This document shows positions 2,874 through 49,535 of a stretch of 64,000 bases of DNA, one piece after another. The notes beneath the pieces were generated by a model. It was not told the DNA's origin. It worked only from the letters and a program-made list of their open reading frames with translations, and did not search any database. This stretch comes from an uncultured Chloroflexia bacterium (GTDB lineage: Bacteria; Chloroflexota; Limnocylindria; Limnocylindrales; CSP1-4). Where the stretch lies: NCBI GenBank assembly GCA_963746845.1, contig CAVVCZ010000006.1:160001-224000 (forward strand), in the 5' to 3' direction. The position numbers and the translations under genes are program-made. The number at the start of each line of letters is the position of its first letter. Position 1 is the stretch's first letter.

Positions 2874-3055
2874 TCGAGCCGATCGAGATCCGGCTGCTCG
2901 ACGACGAGGGGGACACGCCGGCCGAGGCATCCATCAGCGATGATCCGGCCGCCGTCGTCCTGACCTGCGCAAACTGCGGGGCCGCGATGGACGAACGGAA
3001 ATGCAAGCTGATCTGCCGGTGCGGATACTTCCTGTCCTGCTCCGACTACTACTGA
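2870..3055 (+). CDS. Small Cys-rich zinc-ribbon protein
   Basis: CANC...CKLICRCGYFLSCSDYY; ATGA overlap with the upstream stop. Confidence 0.7.
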   Translation: MIEPIEIRLLDDEGDTPAEASISDDPAAVVLTCANCGAAMDERKCKLICRCGYFLSCSDYY

Positions 3056-3089
3056 CCGCGGGCGCGAACGCCCGCCGGAGGACCTTCGC

Positions 3090-3512
3090 ATGACCCTTGC
3101 CGCCTTCGCCGCCACGAGCGCTCCCGGTCCGATCGGCGTCGACTACCAGCCGGGCGTCTGCAACATCGGCCCGGCCGAGATCGCCCGTCGCCGGAGGGCC
3201 GGCCACGTCGGGCTCATCGCGACGGTCGCGCTGTTCGCGATCCTCGTCGCCGTCGATGCGCCGCCGATCGCGAGGCTCGTGCTGTTCCTCCCGGCGGCCA
3301 TCGCGGCCTCGGGCTACCTCCAGGCGTGGCTCAAATTCTGCGCCGGGTTCGGGTCCCGCGGGATCTTCAACTTCGGCGACGTCGGCTCGACCGACGAGGT
3401 CGCGGACGCCGCGGCCCGCGCACTCGACAAGGCGAAGGCCAATCGGATCGGGCTGCTCAGCTTCGCGATCGGGCTGGGCGTGGCGGTCGTCGCGGTGCTT
3501 CTCCCGATCTGA
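3090..3512 (+). CDS. Hypothetical membrane protein
   Basis: GGAGG SD upstream; three hydrophobic segments; YQPGVCNIG motif. Confidence 0.75.
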   Translation: MTLAAFAATSAPGPIGVDYQPGVCNIGPAEIARRRRAGHVGLIATVALFAILVAVDAPPIARLVLFLPAAIAASGYLQAWLKFCAGFGSRGIFNFGDVGSTDEVADAAARALDKAKANRIGLLSFAIGLGVAVVAVLLPI

Positions 3513-3545
3513 ACGGTCCCGGCGCGGCCGCCGTAGACTTCGGCG

Positions 3546-4454
3546 ATGACCGCCGAGGCGACCCAGCCCGCCGCCACCGGGCCGGCCCCGACCACCGCCG
3601 CCGGTGCTTCGGCGCCCGGTCGCGAGAAGACCGCGATCCCGAAGAACCCTGGGCGGCGCGACCTCGGGATGAAGGCGACGCTCCTGTTCCCGAACAAGGA
3701 GATCGTCGAGCAGTACTACGTCCCGCTGATCTACACCGCGTGCCGGACGTGCTACTCGGAGCTGACCCCCGACGACATCTTCGACCGCGCGACCGACGGC
3801 CGGGTCGAGCCGGCGAAGATGCAGAAGCTGATCTCCGGCGTGATCGAGTCCGGCCACGGGAGCACGATCGAGCACGTCGTCTTCACCTTCGGGATCAGCG
3901 GCGTGTCGCGGACGCTGTCCCACCAGCTCGTCCGCCATCGGGCTGGCGTCGCGTTCGACCAGCAGAGCCAGCGCTACGTCACCTTCAAGGGCGCGTCGAC
4001 GATGCTGCCGGCCTCGATCGAGGACGCCGAGCCGGAGCTGCGCGACGCGTACAACGAGCAGATCGCGGGCTCGATGGACCTGTACGGCCAGCTCGTCGGT
4101 GCCGGGATCCCGGGCGAGGACGCCCGGTTCGTCTTCCCGAACGCGACCCGGACGAACCTCGTCATGACCACGAACTTGCGCGCGCTCATCCACATGTCCG
4201 GGCTGCGCCTGTGCACGATGGCCCAGTGGGAGATCCGCCGGCTGTTCCAGCTGATCCGCCACGAGATCTTCCAGGTGAGCCCGTTCCTGGGCTCGTTCCT
4301 CGCGCCGAAGTGCGTCGCCCTCGGCTACTGCGACGAGATGGGCAACCGCGACGAGCACTGCCCGATCCGCCCGCACAAGGACAACGTCCTCGCGGCGTGG
4401 GCGGAGAAGTCGAAGGCCGCGAAGGCCGCGGGTCGCGACCTTCCGGTCCGCTGA
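3546..4454 (+). CDS. thyX: FAD-dependent thymidylate synthase
   Basis: GHGSTIEH and the ThyX motif SHQLVRHR...QQSQRY; EDARFVFP; RLCTMAQWEIR. Confidence 0.95.
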   Translation: MTAEATQPAATGPAPTTAAGASAPGREKTAIPKNPGRRDLGMKATLLFPNKEIVEQYYVPLIYTACRTCYSELTPDDIFDRATDGRVEPAKMQKLISGVIESGHGSTIEHVVFTFGISGVSRTLSHQLVRHRAGVAFDQQSQRYVTFKGASTMLPASIEDAEPELRDAYNEQIAGSMDLYGQLVGAGIPGEDARFVFPNATRTNLVMTTNLRALIHMSGLRLCTMAQWEIRRLFQLIRHEIFQVSPFLGSFLAPKCVALGYCDEMGNRDEHCPIRPHKDNVLAAWAEKSKAAKAAGRDLPVR

Positions 4455-4482
4455 TCATCGGATCGAGCGAGCTCCTCTGAAC

Positions 4483-5061
4483 ATGGCGGAGCCCAATCGC
4501 CTGCAGCAGGCCGTCGCACCGAACACGATCGGCTCGGTGACGCCGCGTCCATCCCCGTCGCCGGCGCCACGGACGGCCCCCGACGGAGCGACGAACGACG
4601 ATGGCGATGCCTTCGACACCTTCGACCTCGATGACCTCGACGAGGCCGCCGCGGCGGCGGACCACGCCGTCTCCCATGGCGAGCTCGACCGGCGGGTCCA
4701 GGAGGCCGTCGCGACGGCGATGGCCGATCAGACGGCGGCGGTCGCGGCGGCCCGACGGCGCGGCCGGATCGGGTTCATCGCCGGGCTCCTCCTCGCGGCG
4801 GCAGGCGTCCCGCTGTTCTTCGGGGCGTCGCTCGTCGCCGAGGAGGCCGGCATCGCGCTGATCTGCATCGGCATCGGCGTGGCGCTCCTGTCGATCCTCA
4901 TCGCCGCCGCCCGAGCCGACGTCGCGGCGAGCCGGCGATCGACGACCGCGGCGGTCGCCACCACGATCCTGTTCCCGCATGCGGCGATCGTCTGGATCGC
5001 CGCGATCGGGCTCGTCGCGTTCGGATTGCTCGTCCTGCTGGTGGCCGTGCAGACAGCCTGA
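4483..5061 (+). CDS. Hypothetical membrane protein with acidic N-terminus
   Basis: Acidic soluble N-terminus followed by 3-4 hydrophobic segments; GC3-biased codons. Confidence 0.65.
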   Translation: MAEPNRLQQAVAPNTIGSVTPRPSPSPAPRTAPDGATNDDGDAFDTFDLDDLDEAAAAADHAVSHGELDRRVQEAVATAMADQTAAVAAARRRGRIGFIAGLLLAAAGVPLFFGASLVAEEAGIALICIGIGVALLSILIAAARADVAASRRSTTAAVATTILFPHAAIVWIAAIGLVAFGLLVLLVAVQTA

Positions 5062-5087
5062 CGAACGGAAGCCCAGGCGAGCCGCGG

Positions 5088-5945
5088 TCAGCCCGCGGCC
5101 AGACCCGCGACGAACCGCCGGATCACGCGCGCGAGACGGGGGCCGGCCTCGGCTCCCGCGGCGAGGACCTCCTCGTGGGTCAGCGGCTCGCCCGAGTACC
5201 CGGCGCCCGCATTCGTGACGAGCGACACGCCGCAGACCTCGAGCCCCGCCCAGCGCGCGGCGATGCACTCGAGGACCGTCGACATCCCGACCGCGTCCGC
5301 GCCGAGCGTGCGGAGCATCCGGACCTCGGCCGGGGTCTCGTATTGCGGCCCGAGGAGCCCCGCGTAGATCCCTTCGGTCAGCTCGACGCCCTCTGCATCG
5401 CCTGCGGCGTGGAGCGCCGCGCGGAGACGCGGACTCCAGGCGTCGGTCAGGTCCTGGAACCGAGGACCGATCGCATCCGCGTTCTGGCCGAGGAGCGGCG
5501 TCCGTCCGGTCAGGTTCAGGTGGTCGGCGATGACCATGAGCGTTCCGGGGCCGAAGGCGGGGTCGACGCCGCCCGCCGCGTTCGTCAGGACGACGATCTC
5601 GGCGCCGAGCCGCCGGAACAGGAGGACCGGCTGGACGACCAGGCCCGGGTCGTTGCCTTCGTACACGTGGAACCGGCCCTGGAGCATGACGACGGGTGTA
5701 TCGCCGAGGCGACCGAGCAGGAGCCGTCCGACATGACCCGGCGCGGTCGCCGCGGGCCAGCCCGGCAGGTCGGCGAACGGGATCGCGGTCGCGTCCTCGA
5801 GGTCGTCGGCCAGGCCGCCCAGCCCGGAGCCGAGGACGATGCCCACGCGCGGGACGAGGCTCGCGCGCGCGCGGATCGCGGCCTCCAGCGCATCGAGACG
5901 GGCGGGCTGGTCCGCGGGCGGGATCGGGGTCGAGACGGGAATCAC
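5088..5945 (-). CDS. punA: Purine-nucleoside phosphorylase (trimeric PNP family)
   Basis: VLGSGLG, GHVGRL, QGRFHVYEG, TNAAGG, GPQYETPAE, VGMSTVLE; GTG start chosen after a GGAGG. Confidence 0.9.
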   Translation of the reverse strand: MIPVSTPIPPADQPARLDALEAAIRARASLVPRVGIVLGSGLGGLADDLEDATAIPFADLPGWPAATAPGHVGRLLLGRLGDTPVVMLQGRFHVYEGNDPGLVVQPVLLFRRLGAEIVVLTNAAGGVDPAFGPGTLMVIADHLNLTGRTPLLGQNADAIGPRFQDLTDAWSPRLRAALHAAGDAEGVELTEGIYAGLLGPQYETPAEVRMLRTLGADAVGMSTVLECIAARWAGLEVCGVSLVTNAGAGYSGEPLTHEEVLAAGAEAGPRLARVIRRFVAGLAAG

Positions 5946-6189
5946 GGGCGCGCGGGCCTCCGGGATCTCATCCAGGGGGAAGACGGCCGAGGCCCGCTGA
6001 GCAGAAAGCCCGACGGACGTACCGACACCGGGATGCCGGTCGCAGTCCGCCGGGCGGTCGTCGCTCGGACGGGGACGAACGAGGCCGCCGGGTCCGGGCA
6101 ACGAAGCGCCCGAAGCGACCGGCGCGGAGCGGAGGCCCTTGATGTGATCTCGGTTTCTCCGGTTCCTGACGGCCCCTTCGGGCACGACC

Positions 6190-6219
6190 TACGGTACGGC
6201 CGGCTCGGGACGGGGGTCA
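6190..6219 (-). promoter_or_regulatory. Putative sigma70 promoter for the PNP leader
   Basis: Minus strand TTGACC-N18-TACCGT. Confidence 0.5.
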
Positions 6220-6225
6220 ACGGAT

Positions 6226-6312
6226 TTGTCCACCAAGTGCGGGCATCGGCGGGGACGAGTATCCACGAGTTCTGCACCGATGTGGACGAGACGTGGACAA
6301 GACGGTGGAGAG
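6226..6312. promoter_or_regulatory. Cluster of six DnaA-box-like 9-mers
   Basis: TTGTCCACC 6226, GTATCCACG 6259, TTCTGCACC 6270; reverse orientation TCGTCCACA 6281, TTGTCCACG 6292, CTCTCCACC 6304; about 11-bp phasing. Confidence 0.5.
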
Positions 6313-6351
6313 TCTGCGCCGCAGACCCGTCGGCCGCGGGTCAGCCGCCCC

Positions 6352-7392
<1,041 letters not shown>

Positions 7393-7621
7393 CGCTCGCA
7401 ATCCTAGCGTGGCCCCGAGGAACCGCCCGCCCATACGACCCGAAGACGACCGAAATCTCGGTTGCGAGCGGTCAACGCGCCAGGGTCCGCCCCTGACGGC
7501 GGTACCACCGGCGCCCGCCGCTGGTACCTCTAGCGGACTCCATCACACCCACCACTCGCCACCACAATGCGGCCACGCCCTGGACCCCCTGCAGCGCGCC
7601 ATCTGGAGAGGCACACGACGC

Positions 7622-9253
7622 ATGGCCACGACCGACGCGAAGAGCGGATTCCGGCTTCCGTGGAGCTCTGACCGGCCCGCGGACGGAAGCGAACCGACCG
7701 ACGAGCCCACCGGCGAGGACGGCTGGCCGTCCGAGTCGGGAGCGCCCGAGCAGACCGACGCCCCCGACGGGACCGCCGACGTGGCGGACGCTCCCGAGGC
7801 CGCCGACGCGCCCGAGGCCGTCGAGGCCCCGGCCGACGCCCCGGCTGACGCCCCCGCCGCCGTCGAGGTCGACGAGCCCGCGCCCGTGCCCGCGGCTGCC
7901 GCCGTCGCCAAGGCGACCGGCAAGAAGCCGAACAAGTTCCTCGCCGACCTGACGAAGGCGATGCAGGCCGCCGCGGAGGACGCGCGCGGTCGCGCGCTCA
8001 GCCAGCTCCAGGCCGACGCGAAGACCCACATCGAGTCGATCCACGGTCGATCCGCGACCGAGGCCGCCGATCTCCGCCGAAACGCCGACGACGACGTCGC
8101 CGCGGTCCGCGAGTGGTCGAAGGCCGAGATCGCCCGGATCCGCGAAGAGACCGAGCAGAAGATCACCGATCGGAAGGCTCGTCTCGAGACGGAGATCGAG
8201 CAGCATGCCGCCGTCATCGAGCGCGAGATCGTGGCCGTCCAGGGGACGGTCGCCGGGTTCGAGAGCGAGATGGCCGACTTCTTCGAGCGCCTGCTCGGCG
8301 AAGAGGACCCGACCCGGTTCGCCACGATGGCCGAGAACCTCCCCGAGCCGCCGACCTTCGACGACCTGACCGTCGCCGCGGTCGAGGCCGAGCCCGAGGC
8401 CGCCGTCGAGACGGTCGCGGACGAGCCGGAGGCCGAGGCCGCCGAAGCCGGTGTCGCGGAGACGGCTGAGGCCGAGGCAGGGACGGCCGACGCGGCGACG
8501 GACGAGACCACCGAGACCGTCGATGGCGTGGCCGAGGAGGCCGCCGAGCCGGTCGAGGGCAGCGCCGAGTCCACCGAGAACGCCGAGGCCGGCATGTCCG
8601 GTGAGGGCTCGTTCGAAGGCTTCGCCGGGGGCGAGGGCATGGACGGCGATACCGAGGTCGACCGCGAGGCCGCCTTCGCCGCGATCCAGGCCGCCGCCGA
8701 GGCCGCCGCCAGCGCGGAGGTCGCGGCCGACGCCGCAGCCCGCGCCGAGGCCGTCGCCGACGTCGCCATCGAGATCATCGGCAACCATGACGGCGAGCCC
8801 GAGAGCGAGGCGGATCCCCGCTTCGCGGCCCTCGGCCTCTCGCCGGACTTCGACGCCGCCGAGGCCGAGGCGCTCGCCAGCGCCGACGCGTCGGGCGACG
8901 ACGAGATCCCGGTCATCGGCGACGACGCGCTCGCCGCACGACTCGCCGGCCTCGTGCCGTCGAAGGGCAAGGGCGCGAGCGGCGACGCGACGCAGACCCA
9001 GGTCGTCGTCGTCGGGCTGGTCAGCGTCGCGAGCATCGCCAGCTTCAAGCGCCACCTCGGGCGGGTCCCGGGCGTGCAGTCGGTCGGCGTGTCGTCCGGC
9101 CCCGACGGGGAGTTCGTCTTCGCGGTGGCCCATTCGGCCGAGACCAACCTCCGCGACGCCATCCCGTCCCTGCCGAGCTTCCAGGCTCGGGTCAACAACT
9201 CCACCGACGGCTCCATTCACGTCACCGCCCATGACCCGGAGGCGGACGGCTAG
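7622..9253 (+). CDS. Acidic, Ala/Glu-rich coiled-coil protein with small globular C-terminal domain
   Basis: GGAGAGG SD; heptad-like central region; low-complexity acidic linkers; C-terminal alpha/beta segment VVVVGLVSVASIASFKRHL. Confidence 0.8.
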   Translation: MATTDAKSGFRLPWSSDRPADGSEPTDEPTGEDGWPSESGAPEQTDAPDGTADVADAPEAADAPEAVEAPADAPADAPAAVEVDEPAPVPAAAAVAKATGKKPNKFLADLTKAMQAAAEDARGRALSQLQADAKTHIESIHGRSATEAADLRRNADDDVAAVREWSKAEIARIREETEQKITDRKARLETEIEQHAAVIEREIVAVQGTVAGFESEMADFFERLLGEEDPTRFATMAENLPEPPTFDDLTVAAVEAEPEAAVETVADEPEAEAAEAGVAETAEAEAGTADAATDETTETVDGVAEEAAEPVEGSAESTENAEAGMSGEGSFEGFAGGEGMDGDTEVDREAAFAAIQAAAEAAASAEVAADAAARAEAVADVAIEIIGNHDGEPESEADPRFAALGLSPDFDAAEAEALASADASGDDEIPVIGDDALAARLAGLVPSKGKGASGDATQTQVVVVGLVSVASIASFKRHLGRVPGVQSVGVSSGPDGEFVFAVAHSAETNLRDAIPSLPSFQARVNNSTDGSIHVTAHDPEADG

Positions 9254-34347: not shown

Positions 34348-35097
34348 CTACATCATCACGAGGCCGCCGTCGACGGCCAGCACCTGACCCGTGATGAACG
34401 CCGCTTCGTCGCTCGCGAGGAACGCGACGGCCGAGGCGATCTCCTCGGTCGTCCCGAACCGGCCGAGCGGCGTTCGCGACGTGATCTCGGCCTGGAGCGC
34501 CTCGGGCAGGTCCGCCGTGAGCTCGGTCAGGACGAAGCCGGGCGCGACGGCGTTGCAGGTGATCGAGCGCGAGGCCAGCTCCCGAGCCGTCGCCTTCGTG
34601 AGCCCGATCAGACCGGCCTTGGCCGATGAGTAGTTCGCCTGGCCCATCTGGCCGGCCTGGCCGCTGACGGAGGTGATGTTCACGATCCGGCCGCTCCGCG
34701 CCTTGAGCATCGGCCGCGTCACGGCCTTCGTCATGTAGAACGCGCCGAACAGGTTTGTTTCGAGGACCTCGCGGAACGCCTCGACCGACATCCGCATGAT
34801 CAGGTCGTCGCGGGTGATCCCGGCGTTGTTCACGAGGATGTCGACCTTGCCGAACGTGTCGACGACCTGCTTCACGACCCCCTCGGCCGCATCGGGATCC
34901 GTCGCGTTCGCCTGGATCGCCAGCGCCTGCCGGCCGAGCGCCGTGAGCTCGGCGGTACACGACGCGGCCGCTTCCTCGTTCCCGCGGTAGGTGAACGCAA
35001 CATCGGCGCCCTGGGTCGCGAGTCTGTTGGCGATCGCCCGGCCGATGCCTCGAGAGCCACCGGTGACGAGCGCGGTCTTTCCCGTCAGGTCGATCAC
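34348..35097 (-). CDS. fabG: 3-oxoacyl-ACP reductase
   Basis: TGGSRGIG, NNAGITRD, YSSAK; fab operon context. Confidence 0.95.
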   Translation of the reverse strand: MIDLTGKTALVTGGSRGIGRAIANRLATQGADVAFTYRGNEEAAASCTAELTALGRQALAIQANATDPDAAEGVVKQVVDTFGKVDILVNNAGITRDDLIMRMSVEAFREVLETNLFGAFYMTKAVTRPMLKARSGRIVNITSVSGQAGQMGQANYSSAKAGLIGLTKATARELASRSITCNAVAPGFVLTELTADLPEALQAEITSRTPLGRFGTTEEIASAVAFLASDEAAFITGQVLAVDGGLVMM

Positions 35098-36308
35098 GCG
35101 TGCACCTCTGTGGACGGGTGGGCCCGCTCCGGCTCGCCGGGCGCGACGTCGTCCAGCGGGACATCCAGCGATCCTGGCTGCCGCATCACCGCGGCGAGGG
35201 CGTCCGGGATCGGGTCGACGGAGTCCCAGTCGACCGGGAGCCGCACGGACACGTCCTCCGGCCGGACCGCCTCGTCCGCCGTGCGGCCGCGCGCCGGGTC
35301 CGCGGTCCACTTGATCGTCACCGCGCCGCTCGTGAAACCGGCTCCGAACGCCACGATCGTCACGTTGTCACCGACCTTCACGCAGCCCTCGTTGACCGCC
35401 TCGGCGAGGGCGATCGGCACGGACGCGGCCGACGTGTTCCCGTACCGATCGAGGTTGATGAACATCTTGTCCATCGGCAGGTCGAGGCCCTTCGCGACCG
35501 CCTCGATGATCCGGATGTTCGCCTGGTGGGGGATGAACAGGTCGACGTCCGCCGGCTCCAGCCCGGATCGGCGGATCGACTCGAGCGCGGTCGTCGCCAT
35601 CGTCTTCGTGGCGAACCGGTAGGTCTGGTTGCCCTCCATCCGGACGTAGTGCTCGCCCCGCCGGATCGTCTCCGCGGACGGCGGCGCCTTCGACCCGCCG
35701 GCCGGCAGCCAGATCATGTAGGCGCCCTGCGGCTCGGTCGTCATCTCGATCCCGAGCGCGCCGCCCGGCTCGTCGCTCGCGCTCAGCACCACCGCGCCGG
35801 CCCCGTCGCCGAACAGGATGCAGGTGCTCCGGTCCGTGTAATCGAGGAACCGGGTGAGGAGCTCCGAGCCGATGACGAGGACGTGCTTCGCAAGGCCCGC
35901 CTGGATGTACGCCTGGGCGGTCGCGAAGCCGTAGACGAAGCCGGAGCAGGCGGCCATGACGTCGAACGCGGTCGCGCGGGTGTTGCCGATCGCCTCCTTG
36001 ACGAGCGCCGCGGTCGACGGCATCCAGTAGTCCGGCGTCAGGGTGGCGAGGAGGATCAGGTCGATGTCGTCCGGCTGGATCCCGGCGGTGTGGATCGCCC
36101 GCAGCCCGGCGACCGCGCCCATCGACGCCGTCGTCTCGTTCGCGGCGGCGACCCGGCGCTCGCGAATCCCGGTCCGCGTCCGGATCCACTCGTCGGAGGT
36201 GTCGACCATCTTCTCCAGGTCGGCGTTCGTCAGGACCTGGGCGGGGGCGTAGCGGCCCCAGCCGGTCACGTGGGCGCGTCGGGTGGCGGGAGCCGTGGCG
36301 TCGTTCAC
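35094..36308 (-). CDS. fabH: 3-oxoacyl-ACP synthase III
   Basis: AACSGF, FGDGAGA, PHQAN, GNTSAAS, FGAG. Confidence 0.95.
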   Translation of the reverse strand: MNDATAPATRRAHVTGWGRYAPAQVLTNADLEKMVDTSDEWIRTRTGIRERRVAAANETTASMGAVAGLRAIHTAGIQPDDIDLILLATLTPDYWMPSTAALVKEAIGNTRATAFDVMAACSGFVYGFATAQAYIQAGLAKHVLVIGSELLTRFLDYTDRSTCILFGDGAGAVVLSASDEPGGALGIEMTTEPQGAYMIWLPAGGSKAPPSAETIRRGEHYVRMEGNQTYRFATKTMATTALESIRRSGLEPADVDLFIPHQANIRIIEAVAKGLDLPMDKMFINLDRYGNTSAASVPIALAEAVNEGCVKVGDNVTIVAFGAGFTSGAVTIKWTADPARGRTADEAVRPEDVSVRLPVDWDSVDPIPDALAAVMRQPGSLDVPLDDVAPGEPERAHPSTEVHA

Positions 36309-36928
36309 AGGGGTTCCACCTCGATCAGCGGCTGCTTCGCCTTGACCAGGGCACCGTTCTCCGGCACGACCTTGACGACCCTCCCCGCGAGGTCGGACTT
36401 GATCTCGTTGAACAGCTTCATCGCCTCGATCAGGCCGATGACCTGGCCGACGGCGACCTCGCGGCCGACGGCGACGAACGCTGCGGAGCCCGGCGCCGGC
36501 GAGCCGTACCAGACGCCGGTCAGCGGCGCCTTCACGGACGGGCGGCTCGGAGGCTCGGTCGGGGCGGCTGACGACGACCCGTCGTCGGGCGCGGGGGCCG
36601 GTGACGTGCCTGCGGCTGGTGCCGCGCCCGCGCCCGTCGCGGCGGCCGGAGCCGCGGCGACCGCGACCGCCTTGCGCAGGACGAGCCGCGTGCCGCCGGC
36701 CTCGACGGCGAGCTCCGAGAGGTCGCTCCGGTCGAGGAGCGCCCCGAGCCGGTCGACGAGCGCCAGCAGGGAGGCGTCACCCGGATCCTGGGGCACGACG
36801 GCGACGTCCGCATCGGGCTCCGGCGGATCCGGCGGATCGGCGTCCGGGAGCGAGTCCGCGAGCGTATCCGCGCCGCCGGCCGCGAGGGCCTCCGGCTCGC
36901 CCGTCATGCCGTCCGTCAGTCCGTCCAT
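36305..36928 (-). CDS. accB: Biotin carboxyl carrier protein (biotinylatable)
   Basis: APLTGVWY..P.P; IEAMKLFNEI with intact biotinyl Lys; start could be 36907. Confidence 0.92.
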   Translation of the reverse strand: MDGLTDGMTGEPEALAAGGADTLADSLPDADPPDPPEPDADVAVVPQDPGDASLLALVDRLGALLDRSDLSELAVEAGGTRLVLRKAVAVAAAPAAATGAGAAPAAGTSPAPAPDDGSSSAAPTEPPSRPSVKAPLTGVWYGSPAPGSAAFVAVGREVAVGQVIGLIEAMKLFNEIKSDLAGRVVKVVPENGALVKAKQPLIEVEPL

Positions 36929-38199
36929 CGGCGGAAGATCAGCGCGGTGTTCTGGCCGCCGAACCCGAACGAGTTCGACAGGGCGATCGGGATGTCGTGA
37001 CGGCTCGCCACGTTCGGGGTCAGGTCCAGCCCCTCTCCCTCGGGGTCGACGTCGTGGAGGTTGACCGTCGGCGGGACGCAGCCCTCGCGCATCGTCTGGA
37101 TCGTGATGATCGCCTCGATCGCTCCTGCCGCGCCGAGCGTGTGCCCGATCATCGACTTGTTCGCGGTGATCGAGATCTCGCGCGCGTGCTCGCCGAAGAT
37201 CGTCTTGATCGCCTGCAGCTCGGCCTTGTCGCCCTCGGGCGTCGACGTCGCGTGGGCGTTGACGTGGGCGATGTCTCCCGGCTCGAGGCCGGCCTTCTCG
37301 AGCGCCCGCCGGGCCGCCCGGACCGCGCCGATCCCGCCGGGTGCCGGCAGCGTGATGTGCGACGCGTCCGCCGTCGCGCCGTAGCCGACGACCTCGGCCA
37401 GGATCTCGACGCCGCGGGCGCGGGCGTGGTCGAGCTCCTCGAGGATGAGGACGCCGCAGCCCTCACCGGGGACGAAGCCGTCGCGACCCTGGTCGAACGG
37501 CCGCGAGGCCCCCTCCGGGTCGTCGTTCCGGCGGGACAGCGCCCGCATGGAATCGAAGCCGCCCATCAGCGGCTCGAAGACGCCGGCCTCCGAGCCGCCG
37601 GCCAGCATCGTGTCGGCGTCGTTGCGGCGGATCGTCTCGAACGCCTCGCCGATCGCGTGGCCGCCGGTGGCGCACGCGGAGACAGTCGTGAAGTTCGGCC
37701 CGGTCATCCCGTAGTTGATCGCGATCTGCCCGGCCCCGATGTTCGGGATCCCCATCGGGATCAGGAACGGGCTGATCCGATCCGGCCCCCGCAGGGCGTT
37801 CGTCGTGATCCCCTCGACGAGCGTCCCGACCCCGCCGAGACCCGTCCCGAGGATCACCCCGGTCCGTTCGGCCTCGTCGCCCTCCATCCGCTCCGGCAGC
37901 GCGGCCTGGTCCATCGCCTGTCGCGCGGCGACGAGCCCGAACTGGATGTAGCGGTCGGTCCGCCGGATGTCCTTCCGGTCCATGACGCCCGACGCATCGA
38001 AGTCCTTGACCTCGCCGACGACCTGGGCCTTGAGGCGCGACGGGTCGAAGGCTGCGACCCGGGCGATCCCCGAGCGGCCGGCCACCATCCCCTGCCACGT
38101 GGACGCGACATCGTTGCCGAGCGCGGTGAGCATCCCGGTGCCGGTCACGACGACCCGGCGAGGGGTCGCCGGCCAGGCGCCGTTCGAGCGCGCGGTCAC
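36916..38199 (-). CDS. fabF: 3-oxoacyl-ACP synthase II
   Basis: RRVVVTG, SACATG, NAHATST, KSMIGHTLGAAG, NSFGFGG. Confidence 0.95.
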   Translation of the reverse strand: MTARSNGAWPATPRRVVVTGTGMLTALGNDVASTWQGMVAGRSGIARVAAFDPSRLKAQVVGEVKDFDASGVMDRKDIRRTDRYIQFGLVAARQAMDQAALPERMEGDEAERTGVILGTGLGGVGTLVEGITTNALRGPDRISPFLIPMGIPNIGAGQIAINYGMTGPNFTTVSACATGGHAIGEAFETIRRNDADTMLAGGSEAGVFEPLMGGFDSMRALSRRNDDPEGASRPFDQGRDGFVPGEGCGVLILEELDHARARGVEILAEVVGYGATADASHITLPAPGGIGAVRAARRALEKAGLEPGDIAHVNAHATSTPEGDKAELQAIKTIFGEHAREISITANKSMIGHTLGAAGAIEAIITIQTMREGCVPPTVNLHDVDPEGEGLDLTPNVASRHDIPIALSNSFGFGGQNTALIFRRWTD

Positions 38200-38942
38200 C
38201 GGACGAGCTTCCCGGTGCGGACGGTGGCCGCGCGGTACACGTCGCCGGCCAGCCCGCGGGCCGAGATCGCGTTCGAGACGGCCATCGTGTCGAATTCGGC
38301 GCGCCGGATCTCGGCGGTCACCTCGCGCCCGTCGATCTCGACCAGCGCCCATGAGGCGGTCGGGTCGCCGTCGAAGACGAGCCCGGCAGACCCGTCGTTG
38401 ACGATCAGCTTCCAGCCGAGGTCGCGGATCTCCGGGAGATGGGTGTGGCCGCAGCAGATCACCCGGGCGTCCGTCCGCGAGACGCGCTCGAGGACGACCG
38501 ACGGGTCGAGCTGGGTGTCGAACCCCTGGGTCTGCGAGCCGGGCGAGGCGTGACAGGCCAGGACCATCGTGTCGTCGAGGACCAGGCGGCGCTCGGACGG
38601 CAGGCGGCGCAGCCAGCCGATCCGCTCGTCACCGAGCGTGTCGTGGGCCCACTCGGCGGCCTCGCGGAAGGCATCCGGGACGCCGTCGGTCATCCACGGG
38701 AAGGCAGCCGAATAGTCGAAGTCGGCGACCGCCACGTCCGTGTTGCCCTGGACGATCGTCGCACCGGTCGCCTCCATCTCCCGGAGAGCGTCGACGACGC
38801 CCGCCGGATCCGGGCCCTGGAAGACGTGATCGCCGGCGATGACGACCGCGTCGGGTCGTTCCTTCTTCAGCGCGGCCCGGACGGCGGTCAGCGCCTCGAG
38901 GTTGCCGTGGACGTCCGAGAGGACCGCCAGGCGCGCGGTCAT
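38196..38942 (-). CDS. Calcineurin-like metallophosphoesterase
   Basis: SDVHGN, GD, GNTD, HASP, GHTH, NDGSAG; overlaps both fabZ and fabF. Confidence 0.88.
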   Translation of the reverse strand: MTARLAVLSDVHGNLEALTAVRAALKKERPDAVVIAGDHVFQGPDPAGVVDALREMEATGATIVQGNTDVAVADFDYSAAFPWMTDGVPDAFREAAEWAHDTLGDERIGWLRRLPSERRLVLDDTMVLACHASPGSQTQGFDTQLDPSVVLERVSRTDARVICCGHTHLPEIRDLGWKLIVNDGSAGLVFDGDPTASWALVEIDGREVTAEIRRAEFDTMAVSNAISARGLAGDVYRAATVRTGKLVR

Positions 38943-45121: not shown

Positions 45122-45923
45122 CCCGACCCTGGTTCGATGCGAACCGGAGATGGCGGATCTCGCCCGAGAACACGGCTCGCCGGCCCCGCCCGTCGTCGAC
45201 AAGGAGCGCCCCCGTCCGGTCATCCACGCCCACGGCATCGACGTCCTCGCGCCACCCGTCCGGAAGCTGGAGGACGACCCGACGCCCGGTCGTCACCTGG
45301 CGCGCGGCCCATGCCGTCGCATCGAACCGTCCGTCGCGCAGCTCGCGGACCCGGCCTTCGAGAGCGGAGAGGAAGGCGTCGAGGAGCGACCCGACGTCGA
45401 CCGGCCGGCCCGCGTTCGCGTCCATCAGCGAGGTCATCGCCCCGGCCAGATCCGGCGGGAAATCGGCCCGGCGCCAGTTCCCGTTCACCCCGATCCCGAC
45501 GATCACGTGCGGGTCGGTCGTCCCGAGGCCGACGGACTCGCCGAGCACGCCGGCGAGCTTGCGGACCGTCGCCCGATCCGCGATCACGAGGTCGTTCGGC
45601 CACTTCAGGCGGATCGTTCCCTCCGGCAGCCCGGCCGCCGCCTCCGCCGCCTCCGCCATCGCGAGGCCCACGACCGCCGGGAGCCGCCAGGCCAGGTCCG
45701 CGCCTAGCCAGCCCGGACGGAACCCGACGGACAGGAGCAGCGCCGCGCGCGGTGGCGCGACCCACGTCCGGCCCTCCCGGCCGCGGCCCGCCGTCTGCTC
45801 GGCCGTGACGGCCAGGCAGACCTCCGGCGTCCCGGCGGCCAGCCAGTCCCGGACGACGTCGTTCGTCGAGCCGACGCGCTCGAAGCGCTCGTGCCGGGAC
45901 AGGAACGGCGCGGTGACCGTCAC
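45117..45923 (-). CDS. birA: Biotin-protein ligase (monofunctional, no HTH)
   Basis: STND, QTAGRGREGRTW, LKWPND, KLAGVL, GIGVN. Confidence 0.93.
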   Translation of the reverse strand: MTVTAPFLSRHERFERVGSTNDVVRDWLAAGTPEVCLAVTAEQTAGRGREGRTWVAPPRAALLLSVGFRPGWLGADLAWRLPAVVGLAMAEAAEAAAGLPEGTIRLKWPNDLVIADRATVRKLAGVLGESVGLGTTDPHVIVGIGVNGNWRRADFPPDLAGAMTSLMDANAGRPVDVGSLLDAFLSALEGRVRELRDGRFDATAWAARQVTTGRRVVLQLPDGWREDVDAVGVDDRTGALLVDDGRGRRAVFSGEIRHLRFASNQGRV

Positions 45924-47206
45924 CGGCTCGCCAGGGCCCCCGACGTTGCGTCAACCGCCGCGGAGTCCGGCCGCTCCAGCTCGAACGCCTCGTGAAGGGC
46001 CCGAACCGCGGTCTCGAGGGCGTCCTCCGCGATGATCGTCGTGATCCGGATCTCGGAGGTCGAGATCATCTCGATGTTCACGCCGGCATCGGCCAACGCC
46101 CGGAACATCCGCGCGGCGTAGCCCGGGGCATTCTGGATGCCCGCGCCGACGATCGACACCTTCGCCACGGACGAATCGGTCGTCAGCTCGCGGAAGCCGA
46201 GCTCGCGCGCGATCGGGTCGAGGATCCGCTTGGCCTTCGCGAGCTCGACCTGGGGGATCGTGAAGCTCAGGTCGGTCGCGCTGCCGTGGCCGATGTTCTG
46301 GACGATCATGTCGACGTTGATCCCGGCCTCGGCCAGCGGGCCGAAGACGTGGGCGGCGACGCCCGGCCGGTCCGGGACCTCGACGAGGGTGATCTTCGCG
46401 ACATTCCGATCGTGGGCGAGGCCACGGACCTTGTTCCGCTGCTCCACGAGCGGGTCCTCCTTGATCAGCGTTCCGGGTGCGTCCTCGAACGAGCTGAGGA
46501 CCTCGATGACGACGTCGTTCACCCAGCCGAGCTCGACCGCGCGGGTCTGCATCACCTGGGCGCCCTGGCCGGCGAGCTCGAGCATCTCCTCGTAGCCGAT
46601 GACATCGAGCTGTCGCGACTGCGGGACGATTCGTGGGTCGGCGGTGTGGATGCCCCGGACGTCGGTGAAGATCTGGCAGCGGGTCGCCTTCAGGCGCGCG
46701 GCCAGGGCGACGGCAGTCGTGTCGCTGCCGCCGCGACCGAGCGTCGTGATGTCCGCGCCGGCGGCGTCGTCGCCCTCGGCCCGGCCCTGGAACCCGGCGA
46801 TGATCACGACCTTGCCCCCGTCGAGCTCGCGGCGCACACGGCCGGGGTCGATGGACGCGATCCGCGCCTTGCCGTACCGGCCGTCGGTCGTGATGCCGGC
46901 CTGCGGGCCGCTCAGGCTGATCGCGGCCACGCCGAGCGCGTGGAGCGCCATCGAGACCAGCGTCGCGCTCTGGTGCTCGCCGGTCGCCAGGAGCATGTCC
47001 AGCTCGCGCTCGTCCGGCGTGTCCGTGATCGCGGCGGCGAGGCCGAGCAGCTCGTCGGTCGCGTCGCCCATCGCCGAGACGACGACGACCAGGTCCGAGC
47101 CCGAAGCACGCTCGCGGGCGATCCGCCGCGCGACCCGGCGAATCCTGTCGGCGTCGGCGAGGCTCGAGCCTCCGAACTTCTGCACGACGAGCGGGGCGAC
47201 AGGCAT
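45920..47206 (-). CDS. lysC: Aspartate kinase
   Basis: VQKFGGSS, VVVSAMG, TTLGRGGSDTTA, two ACT domains. Confidence 0.95.
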   Translation of the reverse strand: MPVAPLVVQKFGGSSLADADRIRRVARRIARERASGSDLVVVVSAMGDATDELLGLAAAITDTPDERELDMLLATGEHQSATLVSMALHALGVAAISLSGPQAGITTDGRYGKARIASIDPGRVRRELDGGKVVIIAGFQGRAEGDDAAGADITTLGRGGSDTTAVALAARLKATRCQIFTDVRGIHTADPRIVPQSRQLDVIGYEEMLELAGQGAQVMQTRAVELGWVNDVVIEVLSSFEDAPGTLIKEDPLVEQRNKVRGLAHDRNVAKITLVEVPDRPGVAAHVFGPLAEAGINVDMIVQNIGHGSATDLSFTIPQVELAKAKRILDPIARELGFRELTTDSSVAKVSIVGAGIQNAPGYAARMFRALADAGVNIEMISTSEIRITTIIAEDALETAVRALHEAFELERPDSAAVDATSGALASR

Positions 47207-47389
47207 CGAGGCATTCTACCGCCCGCTCCGGCTGGCTCCCGAGCCCCCAGCCCCTCGTGGCGTCGCCCCGGGCGCCCCGCCCCGGCGCCCCGGGGCGCCT
47301 CGCGCCGCTGCCGGGCCCCCTCCCCGCGCTCCGCCCCGAGCCCCGGCCCGCCCCTCCCCGCGCCCCGCCCCGGCGTTTCGCCGTCTTCC

Positions 47390-47544
47390 CAACCCGTGAA
47401 CACGGTGGGATGTCCACGTCCCGGATGTGCACCCACGATGCATCCGGGGCGCATCCGGGCCGCCGAAACCGCCCGTCCCGCACGGCCCGTACGTCGGGTC
47501 ACGCCGACCGTCGCGCGGAGTTCACGGGTTGAACATCCGGTGAC
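47390..47544. repeat. Degenerate direct repeat, copy 1 (~150 bp, with internal 12-bp inverted repeat)
   Basis: CAACCCGTGAAC 47390-47401 / GTTCACGGGTTG 47520-47531; collinear with the copy at +890 bp. Confidence 0.8.
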
Positions 47545-48197
47545 CGGATGAAGACGATGCCGCGCGGCGGCGTCCCGACTGGCCGACGGATCCAGGACCG
47601 GCACGCCTGCGCCGGTGCCGGCAGCGCCGCACCGAACGCCGGGGCGTGCCGGGAGATCCGCGCCCGGTTCGTCGTGCCTTCGCCCACCACGAGCAGGGCG
47701 GCGACCGGCCCCGCCCGCCAGCCTCGCTTGCGCGCGATCTCCGGCGTGAGCCGCGCCTTCCGGTCGATGCCGATCAGCGTCTGGTTCGCGTCGCCGATCG
47801 ACGCCTTGACTTCGACCGCCACCAGGGCGCCGCCGGGGTGTCGCCCGAGGACGTCGATCGAGCCTCGCTCGCCGAAGATCGCGAACGACACCTCAACCGC
47901 GACCTCCCAGCCCGCTGATCGAAGCCAGCGAACTGTCGCATCGACGATCGTGGCGTGGCGCTCGTCGATCAGCCGGTCCAGCGTCGCGCCGCGCCACCGG
48001 AGATCGAGATCCAGACGACCATCAAGCGCGGCTGCGATCGCCTGAAGATCCGCGAAGGCGATCCGTTCGATCCGTCCGGTCTCGATCCGGGAAACCGTCG
48101 ATCGCGAGAAACCGCAACGTTCCGCGAGCTGGGCCTGCGTCCATCGTCGGCGATCCCGGAGGGCGCGGATGGCTCGGCCGAATCGCCAGCGATCCAT
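47499..48197 (-). CDS. XRE-family HTH fused to PD-(D/E)XK-like nuclease domain
   Basis: LRDRRRWTQAQLAERCGFSRSTVSRIETG HTH; EVSF..GERGSIDVL...VAVEVK nuclease motif. Confidence 0.8.
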   Translation of the reverse strand: MDRWRFGRAIRALRDRRRWTQAQLAERCGFSRSTVSRIETGRIERIAFADLQAIAAALDGRLDLDLRWRGATLDRLIDERHATIVDATVRWLRSAGWEVAVEVSFAIFGERGSIDVLGRHPGGALVAVEVKASIGDANQTLIGIDRKARLTPEIARKRGWRAGPVAALLVVGEGTTNRARISRHAPAFGAALPAPAQACRSWIRRPVGTPPRGIVFIRSPDVQPVNSARRSA

Positions 48198-48283
48198 CGG
48201 ACCAGTTTCGCGATGCGTCCTTATCGCCCGGTCATCGCTCCATTCGTTCGGCGGCTCCCATTTCCGTTCGCCGATTTCTCGCT

Positions 48284-48434
48284 CGGTGAACTCCAGGTGC
48301 TGTCCGCGACCCCGAATGTGCACCCATGACGCCGGCGGGGCAGTCCGGGCTCACGCGCGGCCGAGGTCGAGCGTCGCGGTCGACGAAATCGGGCCGCATG
48401 TCGCGCGGTGTTCACGGGTTGAACATTCAGTGAC
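48284..48434. repeat. Degenerate direct repeat, copy 2 (~150 bp)
   Basis: 48400-48434 matches 47510-47544 at 32/35; GTGAAC, ATGTGCACCCA and TCCGGGC blocks collinear at offset 890-891. Confidence 0.8.
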
Positions 48435-48495
48435 TCGGGCGTTCGCTGCCGCTCCGTCCGAGTCGCAGTAGCCTTCGAGCGGAGGTATCCGCCGC

Positions 48496-49278
48496 ATGTG
48501 CTTCGATCTCGACTCCCGCCCGCCGATCACGCCGATCGCCGGCGGCGCCCTGGACTCGTCCGAGCTGACCCTCGACGCCGAGGACGGCAACCGGTTCCGG
48601 GCGTTCCGGGCGCGGGCGACGGGGGGAACCGGTGCGGGGATCGTGATCCTCCCGGATGTGCGCGGGCTCCATCCCTACTACGAGGAGCTGGCCCTCCGGT
48701 TCGCCGAGCACGGCGTCGATGCGCTCGCCATCGACTACTTCGGGCGGACCGCGGGTCTCGGGCGACGCGGCGACGCGTTCGAGCACATGCCGCACGTCGA
48801 GCAGACCACGTGGGCCGGTCTCTCGGCCGACATCCGGGCGGCGGCGCGGAATCTCCGCGATGACGACGAGGGGCGCGTCGACGCCCTGTTCGCGACGGGC
48901 TTCTGCTTCGGCGGTCGCCTGGCGTTCCTGACGGCCACGCTCGGGATCGACCTCGCCGGGTCCATCGGCTTCTACGGCATCCCGGTCGGGCCGGGCCGCG
49001 CCGACATCCCGGCGCCGGCGGACGTCGCCGACGAGATGCGCAACCCGATCCTCGGCCTGTTCGGCGGCGCGGACGGCGCGATCGGGCCGGACAAGATTTC
49101 CGCGTTCGAGGCGGCCCTGACCGGCGCCCGCGTCGAGCACCGGCTCGTGGCGTTCGACGGGGCGCCGCACAGCTTCTTCGACCGCAAGGCGGACGAGTTC
49201 GCCGATGCGAGCGCCCGCGCCTGGGAGGAGACGCTCACGTTCGTCCGCGGCCACACGCCGAGCGCGATCGAGGCCTGA
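48496..49278 (+). CDS. Dienelactone hydrolase family protein
   Basis: GGAGGT SD; PDVRGL; GFCFGG nucleophile; GGAD; HSFF. Confidence 0.92.
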   Translation: MCFDLDSRPPITPIAGGALDSSELTLDAEDGNRFRAFRARATGGTGAGIVILPDVRGLHPYYEELALRFAEHGVDALAIDYFGRTAGLGRRGDAFEHMPHVEQTTWAGLSADIRAAARNLRDDDEGRVDALFATGFCFGGRLAFLTATLGIDLAGSIGFYGIPVGPGRADIPAPADVADEMRNPILGLFGGADGAIGPDKISAFEAALTGARVEHRLVAFDGAPHSFFDRKADEFADASARAWEETLTFVRGHTPSAIEA

Positions 49279-49280
49279 TC

Positions 49281-49535
49281 GTGGGGTTCCTGAAGCGGCT
49301 GCTCGGCGGCTCCGACGACGCGGCGACGCCGCCCGCGACCGATCCGGCGGTGCCGACGGAGCCAGAGCTCACGCCCGAGGAGATCGAGCGGGCGCACGAG
49401 CTGGAGCTGGCGCGGTTCGAGCAGGACCGGACGACCGATCTCGTCCGGCGTCAGCAGCAGTACAGCGACAAGTCGTGGGTGCCGCCGGCACAGGGCGGCA
49501 CGGTCCGGGCCGGCGACGAAGAGGTGTCCGGCTAG
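49281..49535 (+). CDS. Hypothetical protein
   Basis: MGFLKRLLGG amphipathic N-terminus; 2 bp after the hydrolase stop. Confidence 0.65.
   Translation: MGFLKRLLGGSDDAATPPATDPAVPTEPELTPEEIERAHELELARFEQDRTTDLVRRQQQYSDKSWVPPAQGGTVRAGDEEVSG

Follow-up and report, generated by a model that had tools for sequence, protein, structure and literature searches.

What do two similar repeats mean on either side of one small gene that lies among housekeeping genes? The question is raised by a stretch of 64,000 nucleotides (nt), called the window throughout, from an uncultured Chloroflexia bacterium of the Limnocylindrales (assembly GCA_963746845.1, contig CAVVCZ010000006.1, positions 160,001 to 224,000). 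In it, a minus-strand gene whose product joins an XRE-family helix-turn-helix (HTH) to a PD-(D/E)XK nuclease fold is bracketed by two degenerate repeats of ~155 nt. An initial annotation of this DNA had proposed the gene as the cargo of a repeat-bounded selfish or mobile unit, in which the nuclease recognises its own flanking repeats. In the present analysis the copied unit was found to be a module at the 3′ end of the gene, designated X, and not the gene. The architecture of X, its locked position, the recurrent extra copy, the vertical inheritance of the gene and the conservation of the catalytic motif were observed in the loci compared. They are the basis of the reading that the adjacent nuclease has X as its cognate cis site and that additional copies of X are by-products of their interaction, to which a probability of about one half is assigned.

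The repeat pair and the protein between the repeats

The similarity of the two repeats (copies 1 and 2 of X; Table 1) exceeds chance. They are collinear at an offset of 890 nt and carry, one per copy, the blocks GTGAAC (47396 and 48286), ATGTGCACCCA (47425 and 48316) and TCCGGGC (47454 and 48344), together with a 35-mer (47510 against 48400) in which 32 of 35 positions are identical. The best matching stretches between the copies are 42 nt at 86% and 31 nt at 81%. An exact 16-mer common to both (47520 and 48410) includes the gene-proximal arm of copy 1; with up to 3 mismatches allowed, it was matched 3 times in the 64 kb against 0.14 expected, a count reached in 0 of 100 shuffles. At the offset of 890, 81 of 155 ungapped positions are identical, against a mean of 46.6 (standard deviation 7.2, maximum 74) in ~20,000 random pairs. 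Gapped alignment of 201-nt stretches gave 128 identities in 192 aligned columns, and BLAST of the upstream against the downstream flank returned 91% over 35 nt (E 5e-10) and 71% over 85 nt (E 4e-5). Divergence is concentrated mid-repeat, and both ends are strongly similar. Each copy holds four GTNNAC hexamers, as read by eye; the 263 in the 64 kb correspond to ~0.64 per 155 nt.

Copy 1 is closed by a perfect 12-bp inverted repeat, and its arm core, with one mismatch or fewer, recurs within the 64 kb only at X borders. Read in gene orientation, the copy starts with the arm motif in the last codons of the gene, continues with a second, inverted copy of the motif, and ends with a third, also inverted, which forms the 12-bp closing stem. 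The stop codon of the gene (47499-47501) lies inside the repeat, so that the final 14-15 codons are encoded by copy 1. On the gene strand the gene-proximal arm begins 19 nt past the codon aligned to F216. One end of copy 1 is thus just past the last conserved codons of the gene, and the distal end falls ~180 nt short of lysC. All the repeat blocks listed in the initial annotation, with their coordinates, the inverted repeat and the coding tail of ~15 codons, were found again on re-reading the sequence.

The best start of the minus-strand open reading frame (ORF) is at 48197, which gives a protein of 232 aa with the HTH at residues ~1-60, the nuclease fold at ~70-217 and a tail from ~219 within copy 1. 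On the long ORF, Pfam HTH_31 was matched at residues 47-105 (E 7.5e-15, 55.4 bits, cut-off 27) and HTH_3 with 48.1 bits (cut-off 23), both above the gathering cut-offs for an XRE-family HTH; the closest PDB profiles of this part are HigA2 and C.BclI (~1e-7). Sequence models gave weak matches for the C-terminal domain (MmcB-like 0.033, YraN 0.015). In PADLOC, PHROGs, NCBIfam and the PDB sequence profiles, matches were confined to the HTH and no family match was obtained for the C-terminal domain; those in the PADLOC defence models fall at residues 3-79 (capH, controller proteins).

The nature of the C-terminal domain was read from conservation and structure. D115, E129 and K131, and likewise E102 and R111, are invariant in 105 aligned sequences, in the arrangement D...(D/E)-x-K. 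An AlphaFold2 model built on the 105-member alignment (mean predicted local distance difference test score, pLDDT, 90.2) places the catalytic residues on strands 110-119 and 125-131 and predicts residues 222-232, with pLDDT below 50, to be disordered. Foldseek against the PDB returned SduA (E 2.5e-5), the R2 endonuclease domain (4.1e-5), NucS/EndoMS (9.4e-4), AF1548 and XisH, a restriction-endonuclease-like set matched with probability 0.99-1.0 and with template-modelling (TM) scores of only 0.28-0.37 relative to the query. Judged by the invariant triad, the confident model and the nuclease matches, the enzyme looks active. The description of the product in the initial annotation, an HTH protein with a nuclease motif, holds.

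The protein listed for this place in the window, P0051 (47502-47891), covers the nuclease half only and leaves the HTH half uncalled, while more than 100 homologs extend over the full length. With a product of just 130 aa whose first codon is the one aligned to V103, the gene call is likely truncated, a point of practical use for this record.

Module X at the ends of the family genes

At E<=1e-3 and within the searched length range, 1254 homologs of the protein were found. A search of the protein atlas gave unnamed clusters only, with Chloroflexota as the commonest phylum. A genome scan for the gene yielded 44 loci (given L numbers below), nearly all from metagenome-assembled genomes (MAGs) labelled Chloroflexota or Ca. 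Limnocylindrales. Every locus was retrieved via the gene, and sites that lack it are invisible in this sample.

Family genes often carry, right after their last conserved codon, an X of their own: a locus-private stretch of ~130-250 nt bounded by an inverted repeat. Distant orthologs and paralogs keep the plan of copy 1 with different sequences. A search for a left arm near the gene end and a right arm 55-260 nt downstream gave an inverted repeat in 23 of 41 HTH 3′ regions at a score of >=10 and in 13 of 41 at >=12. Other ORF 3′ ends of the same loci, taken as control, gave 40 of 144 and 6 of 144, respectively. In the regions upstream of the HTH gene the count was 10 of 41, and in mononucleotide shuffles 48 of 410. 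The position of X is narrow. In 18 of the 23 sources with a match, the left arm starts between -15 and +25 nt of the F216-aligned codon (median +4), so it is the continuation of the reading frame into X that gives the protein its variable, disordered C-terminal tail. In the dnaK group X is also found between convergent genes, which ties it to the HTH gene and not to a downstream promoter.

The arms measure 12 nt in the window and 10-43 nt among the 23 sources. Arm cores recur almost only at X borders, as tested for 16 loci, each in its own locus plus the window. Exact and gapped searches for the palindrome of the window gave 0 matches in the 44 loci; the arm sequence is thus locus-private, and no X matched another across loci except between orthologs. 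A CCGRATK core considered as a family-wide arm motif was set aside, since the expected forward-then-reverse layout was present in only 7 of 45 sources.

Of the two copies in the window, copy 1 is the ancestral one. It is present in the nearest relative, L002, at the orthologous place between the gene end and lysC, and three of its blocks align in L001, L002 and both X copies of L003. Copy 2, ~70-237 nt before the HTH start codon, is absent from L002, where the window carries ~140 extra nt, and from all five orthologous spacers (L001, L002, L003, L006, L008) between the HTH gene and the divergent dienelactone-hydrolase (DLH) family gene. These spacers measure 66-139 nt, whereas the one in the window has 298 nt. 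It follows that copy 2 was added in this lineage; several independent losses would be the less parsimonious alternative. What was added is the 3′ module, missing from L002 and four other spacers, and the view of the gene as the cargo of a repeat-bounded unit is not supported. The folds of the two copies were compared with shuffles on both strands. Copy 1 is well below them (z -3.55/-2.42 in one run, -3.46/-3.20 in another), and copy 2 is no better than they are (+1.19/+0.11 and +0.64/+1.16). Copy 2 is now decaying.

A direct upstream copy of X was sought in the 43 sources with usable flanks and was found in three: the window, L005 and L010, a paralog in the thrS-infC gap. The start-to-start spacing of the copies is 890, 894 and 886 nt, respectively. 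Those of L005 agree at 89% over 192 nt and those of L010 at 71% over 156 nt. In all three loci the upstream copy lies at ~-240 to -50 from the start codon, and what was copied extends beyond the left arm by 2-12 nt and beyond the right arm by 2-25 nt. No upstream copy is present in the relatives compared, which were L001, L002, L003, L006 and L008 for the window, L009 and L040 for L005, and L014 and L043 for L010; L003 carries two X copies in tandem. By this comparison, X was copied independently in three loci, each time to an equivalent promoter-proximal position, and in tandem in a fourth. The folds of the upstream copies gave z of +0.6/+1.2 in the window, -1.6/-1.0 in L010 and -4.2/-4.4 in L005: the fold is lost in the more diverged copies (window, L010) and kept in the youngest (L005). 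This looks like recurrent generation followed by decay, and not like selection for a second copy.

Two loci have further repeats. L024 was considered as a case of an inverted extra X copy and was set aside: at positions 6016-7800 the whole HTH gene and its 3′ region are duplicated almost perfectly in inverted orientation, with the centre near 6926, which is probably a fold-back in the long-read assembly. A tandem array of 8/16-nt units lies at 5719-6002 of the same locus. In L005, an 18-nt tandem array of at least 5 units (6824-6947) directly follows X, and an ORF of ~1889 aa made of ~355-415-nt repeats (3000-5700) stands upstream in the place of the DLH gene.

Inheritance of the gene and the readings of X

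Comparison of gene order and trees indicates that the gene is a vertically inherited chromosomal resident and not a jumping element. Ten loci, L001-L009 and L040 (53-82% identity), share parts of the order thrB / DLH / HTH / lysC / birA / sigma. lysC is downstream of the HTH gene in L002, L003, L004, L005, L007, L008, L009 and L040; the DLH gene is the divergent neighbour in L001, L002, L003, L006 and L008 and is farther away in L009. Paralogs occupy other, recurrent housekeeping sites: the thrS-infC gap, a position convergent with dnaK-grpE, one in the vicinity of genes for a 7TM-HD protein and an AMP-binding enzyme, and one inside or after a 2-oxoacid dehydrogenase operon. A tree of 38 HTH proteins was built, with 7 rows left out for frameshifts or short matches. 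Each genomic context of the paralogs forms its own clade in it, and the nine lysC-context rows are one clade (100/99; recovered in 100% of the bootstrap replicates). In the trees of DLH (98/97) and thrB (100/97) the window falls with L001/L003/L008 or L002/L003/L008, matching the HTH tree.

The initial annotation had listed synteny fixed across the clade, homologs without flanking repeats and a nuclease motif that is not conserved as findings that would speak against its proposal. The first two are largely what was found, given the shared order with its single clade and concordant trees and an upstream copy in only 3 of 43 sources. The third was not, the motif being invariant in the aligned family.

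Signs of mobility were searched for with the following results. No second family member was found in the 64-kb window, and no homolog at E<=1e-3 in 72,556 plasmid and 50,697 phage records. Transposase or integrase domains, of which the initial annotation had also noted none, were absent from 31 window ORFs (from the 35 candidates of a GC3-filtered ORF picker, which can miss genes), from 3 ORFs scanned separately and from 97 neighbour ORFs. The unit has no transposase or recombinase, and the HTH is the sole family match of its ORF, so it does not have the make-up of an insertion sequence or composite transposon; with one gene copy in 64 kb and contexts that form their own clades, it does not have the multi-copy, patchy distribution of an insertion sequence either. 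No insertion-sequence, CRISPR or toxin-antitoxin layout fits, as had been noted at the outset.

On the reading to which about one half is assigned, X would be the DNA site of the neighbouring protein. The HTH would read the arm motif, and the nuclease domain would nick or cut at the arms, or at a hairpin formed by the arms in single-stranded DNA. Repair or template switching would now and then copy the arm-to-arm unit nearby. Copy 1 would then be the ancestral module, and copy 2 a later X copy placed in the promoter-proximal region of the HTH-nuclease gene. Binding, cleavage and copying are inferred here; nuclease-triggered copying would account for the identical geometry in independent lineages. 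The proposal of a nuclease that recognises its own flanking repeats thus survives in altered form, with X as a putative cognate site and without mobility of the gene. If the reading is true, it describes a new pairing of enzyme and cis site, with a logic like that of REP/RAYT systems or attC, but with an enzyme of another class and a site strictly linked to its gene; the lineage concerned is abundant in soil and freshwater and has been little studied. It would explain the variable disordered tails, the odd 150-nt repeats beside core genes and possibly the discordant histories of neighbours.

Several observations weigh against it. No target-site duplication was recognised at the copy junctions, and the reading gives no reason for the landing of the copies at -50 to -80. 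Inverted repeats were missing from 18 of 41 HTH 3′ regions at >=10 and from 28 of 41 at >=12, and the lower threshold is weak because 28% of control gene ends reach it. Picking the elements for complementary arms has biased the fold z-scores. RNAalifold on six X copies gave an outer stem and an inner hairpin with 7 of 32 pairs compensatory; covariation in this six-sequence alignment is weak, with an unfavourable term (+2.69). The arm motif was not found near the promoter of the gene in loci without an upstream X, so that a same-sequence autoregulatory operator is not general. Finally, retrieval via the gene leaves gene-less sites unseen, and the view of dispersed X is limited to 12-64 kb per genome.

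A wider form of the same idea is put forward tentatively. It would make the gene and X an undescribed module in which a sequence-reading PD-(D/E)XK nuclease is permanently coupled to a private X, nicks or cuts at the arms or at the folded single strand, and drives local copy-and-paste and recombination at the borders. Such a module could have been seeded between core genes (thrS/infC, E1-beta/E2, DLH/lysC) early in Limnocylindria and then kept. X might also be a present-day recombination hotspot, with which the differing history of lysC in the window lineage, described below, is consistent.

Among the competing explanations, the one that fares best is that X acts as RNA, although we consider it rather unlikely. 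X would then give the HTH mRNA a structured 3′ end that works as a terminator or insulator, as a stability element, as a switch coupled to translation or as a small RNA from the 3′ untranslated region, and additional copies would have arisen incidentally. Both copy 1 and the majority of X elements fold well below shuffles, the left arm overlaps the ORF end, three copies of one motif with one inverted permit alternative pairings, and an insulator is plausibly needed by a gene that sits among essential operons. The fold is, however, symmetric between strands (median z -2.9 sense, -3.0 antisense), and the arm mismatches give no clear wobble signal (20 of G:T type, 11 of A:C type, 56 others). With Rfam 15 at E<=10, nothing on either strand of 46500-49500 overlaps either copy, and no lysine riboswitch was matched despite the downstream lysC; a scan of 47100-48600 for terminator-like sites ending in a T run gave none. 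Together with the unfavourable covariation term, these results speak against an RNA, which would also leave arm-to-arm copying to one position in three lineages unexplained. The arm-to-arm copying and the strand symmetry lead us to lean towards a DNA site over an RNA structure.

X could also be an array of operators, with the protein an ordinary repressor or activator of its housekeeping neighbours and, via copy 2, of itself, and with the nuclease fold serving for oligomerisation only. By its profile the HTH most resembles HigA antitoxins and the controller proteins of restriction-modification systems, whose binding sites are palindromic boxes; what is conserved between the copies is sequence blocks and not, in copy 2, paired stems; and copy 2 abuts the presumed core promoter. 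We regard this as unlikely in view of the invariant catalytic D...E.K, the presence of X between convergent genes, the lack of an upstream arm motif in most orthologs, and the separate, conserved -10-like box of the lysC start, at a distance of more than 180 nt from X.

It is still less probable that the flanking copy is debris, left when the whole gene was duplicated in tandem and one gene body was then lost, so that X is nothing special. The repeat does include the coding tail of the gene, and tandem duplication followed by deletion is a common route; the copied stretch is, however, the arm-to-arm unit in three independent loci with the same placement, and a second gene copy was seen in just 1 of 44 loci, L024, where it resembles an assembly artefact.

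That the HTH-nuclease gene is at present moved as a selfish element, whether as a unit between repeats, as a cassette of the integron kind or as a gene of the homing type, is highly improbable. In its favour, paralogs do lie between tightly linked core genes (thrS/infC, E1-beta/E2), a placement shared with free-standing homing endonuclease genes of phages; a circle integrated at a resident X would suit the repeat-gene-repeat layout of 886-894 nt; and one arm in the window fits the attC inverse-core consensus. The context-specific clades, the agreement of the lysC-context clade with DLH and thrB, the failure to find an integrase, a second copy or a plasmid or phage relative in the searches described above, and the misfit of the arms of L002 and other loci to the attC consensus all oppose it.

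The nuclease-site reading was also compared with known systems. The closest in logic are REP/RAYT and integron attC and the closest in shape are MITEs (miniature inverted-repeat transposable elements); each fails a defining feature. As in REP/RAYT, a single vertical chromosomal gene stands beside short palindromic repeats presumed to be its target, the gene being immobile and the repeats lineage-specific. RAYTs are HUH/Y1 enzymes and REPs are dispersed, many-copy sequences of 20-40 nt. Here, in contrast, the protein is an XRE-HTH with PD-(D/E)XK in which no HUH Y1 domain was found, and X, at 130-250 nt, was met nowhere in the DNA examined except next to its gene, the rest of the window included. 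With MITE-like sequences such as the Correia elements of Neisseria, X shares a length of ~150 nt, terminal inverted repeats, the lack of coding function and copying from arm to arm. It differs in having no dispersed copies in the 64 kb or the 44 loci (12-64 kb per genome), no recognised target-site duplication, its own sequence at each locus, and a lock to the end of one gene family.

In an integron cassette, as at this locus, an ORF is followed at its stop codon by a 60-150-nt site, an imperfect palindrome that keeps its structure rather than its sequence, and the repeat-ORF-repeat layout is that of chromosomal cassette arrays. The would-be cassettes, however, would all be of one gene family at fixed housekeeping sites, and no integrase was found. 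X was therefore rejected as an attC site, since the arms of L001, L002 and L003 also misfit the inverse-core consensus. Free-standing homing endonuclease genes, and PD-(D/E)XK endonucleases that have a separate DNA-reading domain (NucS/EndoMS, the R2 element endonuclease domain, SduA of Shedu), offer the likeness of a small nuclease gene between conserved genes and of a nuclease fold joined to a sequence-reading domain. The TM scores of the structural matches are low (0.28-0.37), and no sequence-level family match exists for the C-terminal domain. The present gene is also long-resident, vertical and, in a sample ascertained by the gene, not patchy. A full-text literature search returned nothing on this protein family or on Limnocylindria repeats, which does not exclude that either has been published.

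Neighbouring genes and coordinates

Table 1. Positions of the repeats, their arms and the adjacent genes in the window
Feature	Position	Strand	Remarks
-10-like hexamer	47213-47218	minus	6 nt before the lysC start codon; read from the sequence
lysC (aspartokinase)	45920-47206	minus	Pfam AA_kinase 4.4e-44 and ACT domains; conserved downstream neighbour
Copy 1 of module X	47390-47544	minus	ancestral copy; contains the stop codon of the gene
Distal arm of the perfect 12-bp inverted repeat of copy 1	47390-47401	none	
Gene-proximal arm of the 12-bp inverted repeat of copy 1	47520-47531	none	within the last codons of the ORF
XRE-HTH and PD-(D/E)XK nuclease-fold gene	47499-48197 (including stop)	minus	from ORF and translation; 232 aa
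Copy 2 of module X	48280-48434	minus	lineage-specific extra copy, in the divergent DLH/HTH promoter region
Dienelactone-hydrolase (DLH) family gene	48496-49278	plus	Pfam DLH 4.8e-33; divergent upstream neighbour

The -10-like hexamer before lysC is kept in the window and in all eight orthologous spacers (L002-L005, L007-L009, L040), which suggests that the lysC transcript is leaderless. With this box 6 nt from the start codon, X would lie upstream of the putative lysC promoter and not in a lysC leader. A consensus promoter scan of 47100-48600 found 0 sites.

The lysC tree places the window with L009/L005/L040 (99/100), unlike the HTH, DLH and thrB trees, in which it stands with L001/L003/L008. 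The disagreement implies that history switches somewhere from the HTH gene to lysC, in the area of copy 1 and the C-rich spacer, and could reflect allelic replacement of lysC. The spacer between lysC and copy 1 (47207-47389) has ~79% G+C, is C-rich on the plus strand, contains degenerate direct repeats and aligns poorly with L002.

In L030 a family paralog adjoins FabH and a ketoacyl synthase (KAS); a FabH-KAS pair in the window (35094-38628), at a possibly equivalent site, has no adjoining paralog (34348-35093). Two loci come from MAGs with labels outside Chloroflexota, L004 (Ca. Polarisedimenticolia), which has lysC synteny, and L037 (Aeromicrobium). Their genes nest within the Chloroflexota family tree, and the labels could be due to mis-binning or transfer.

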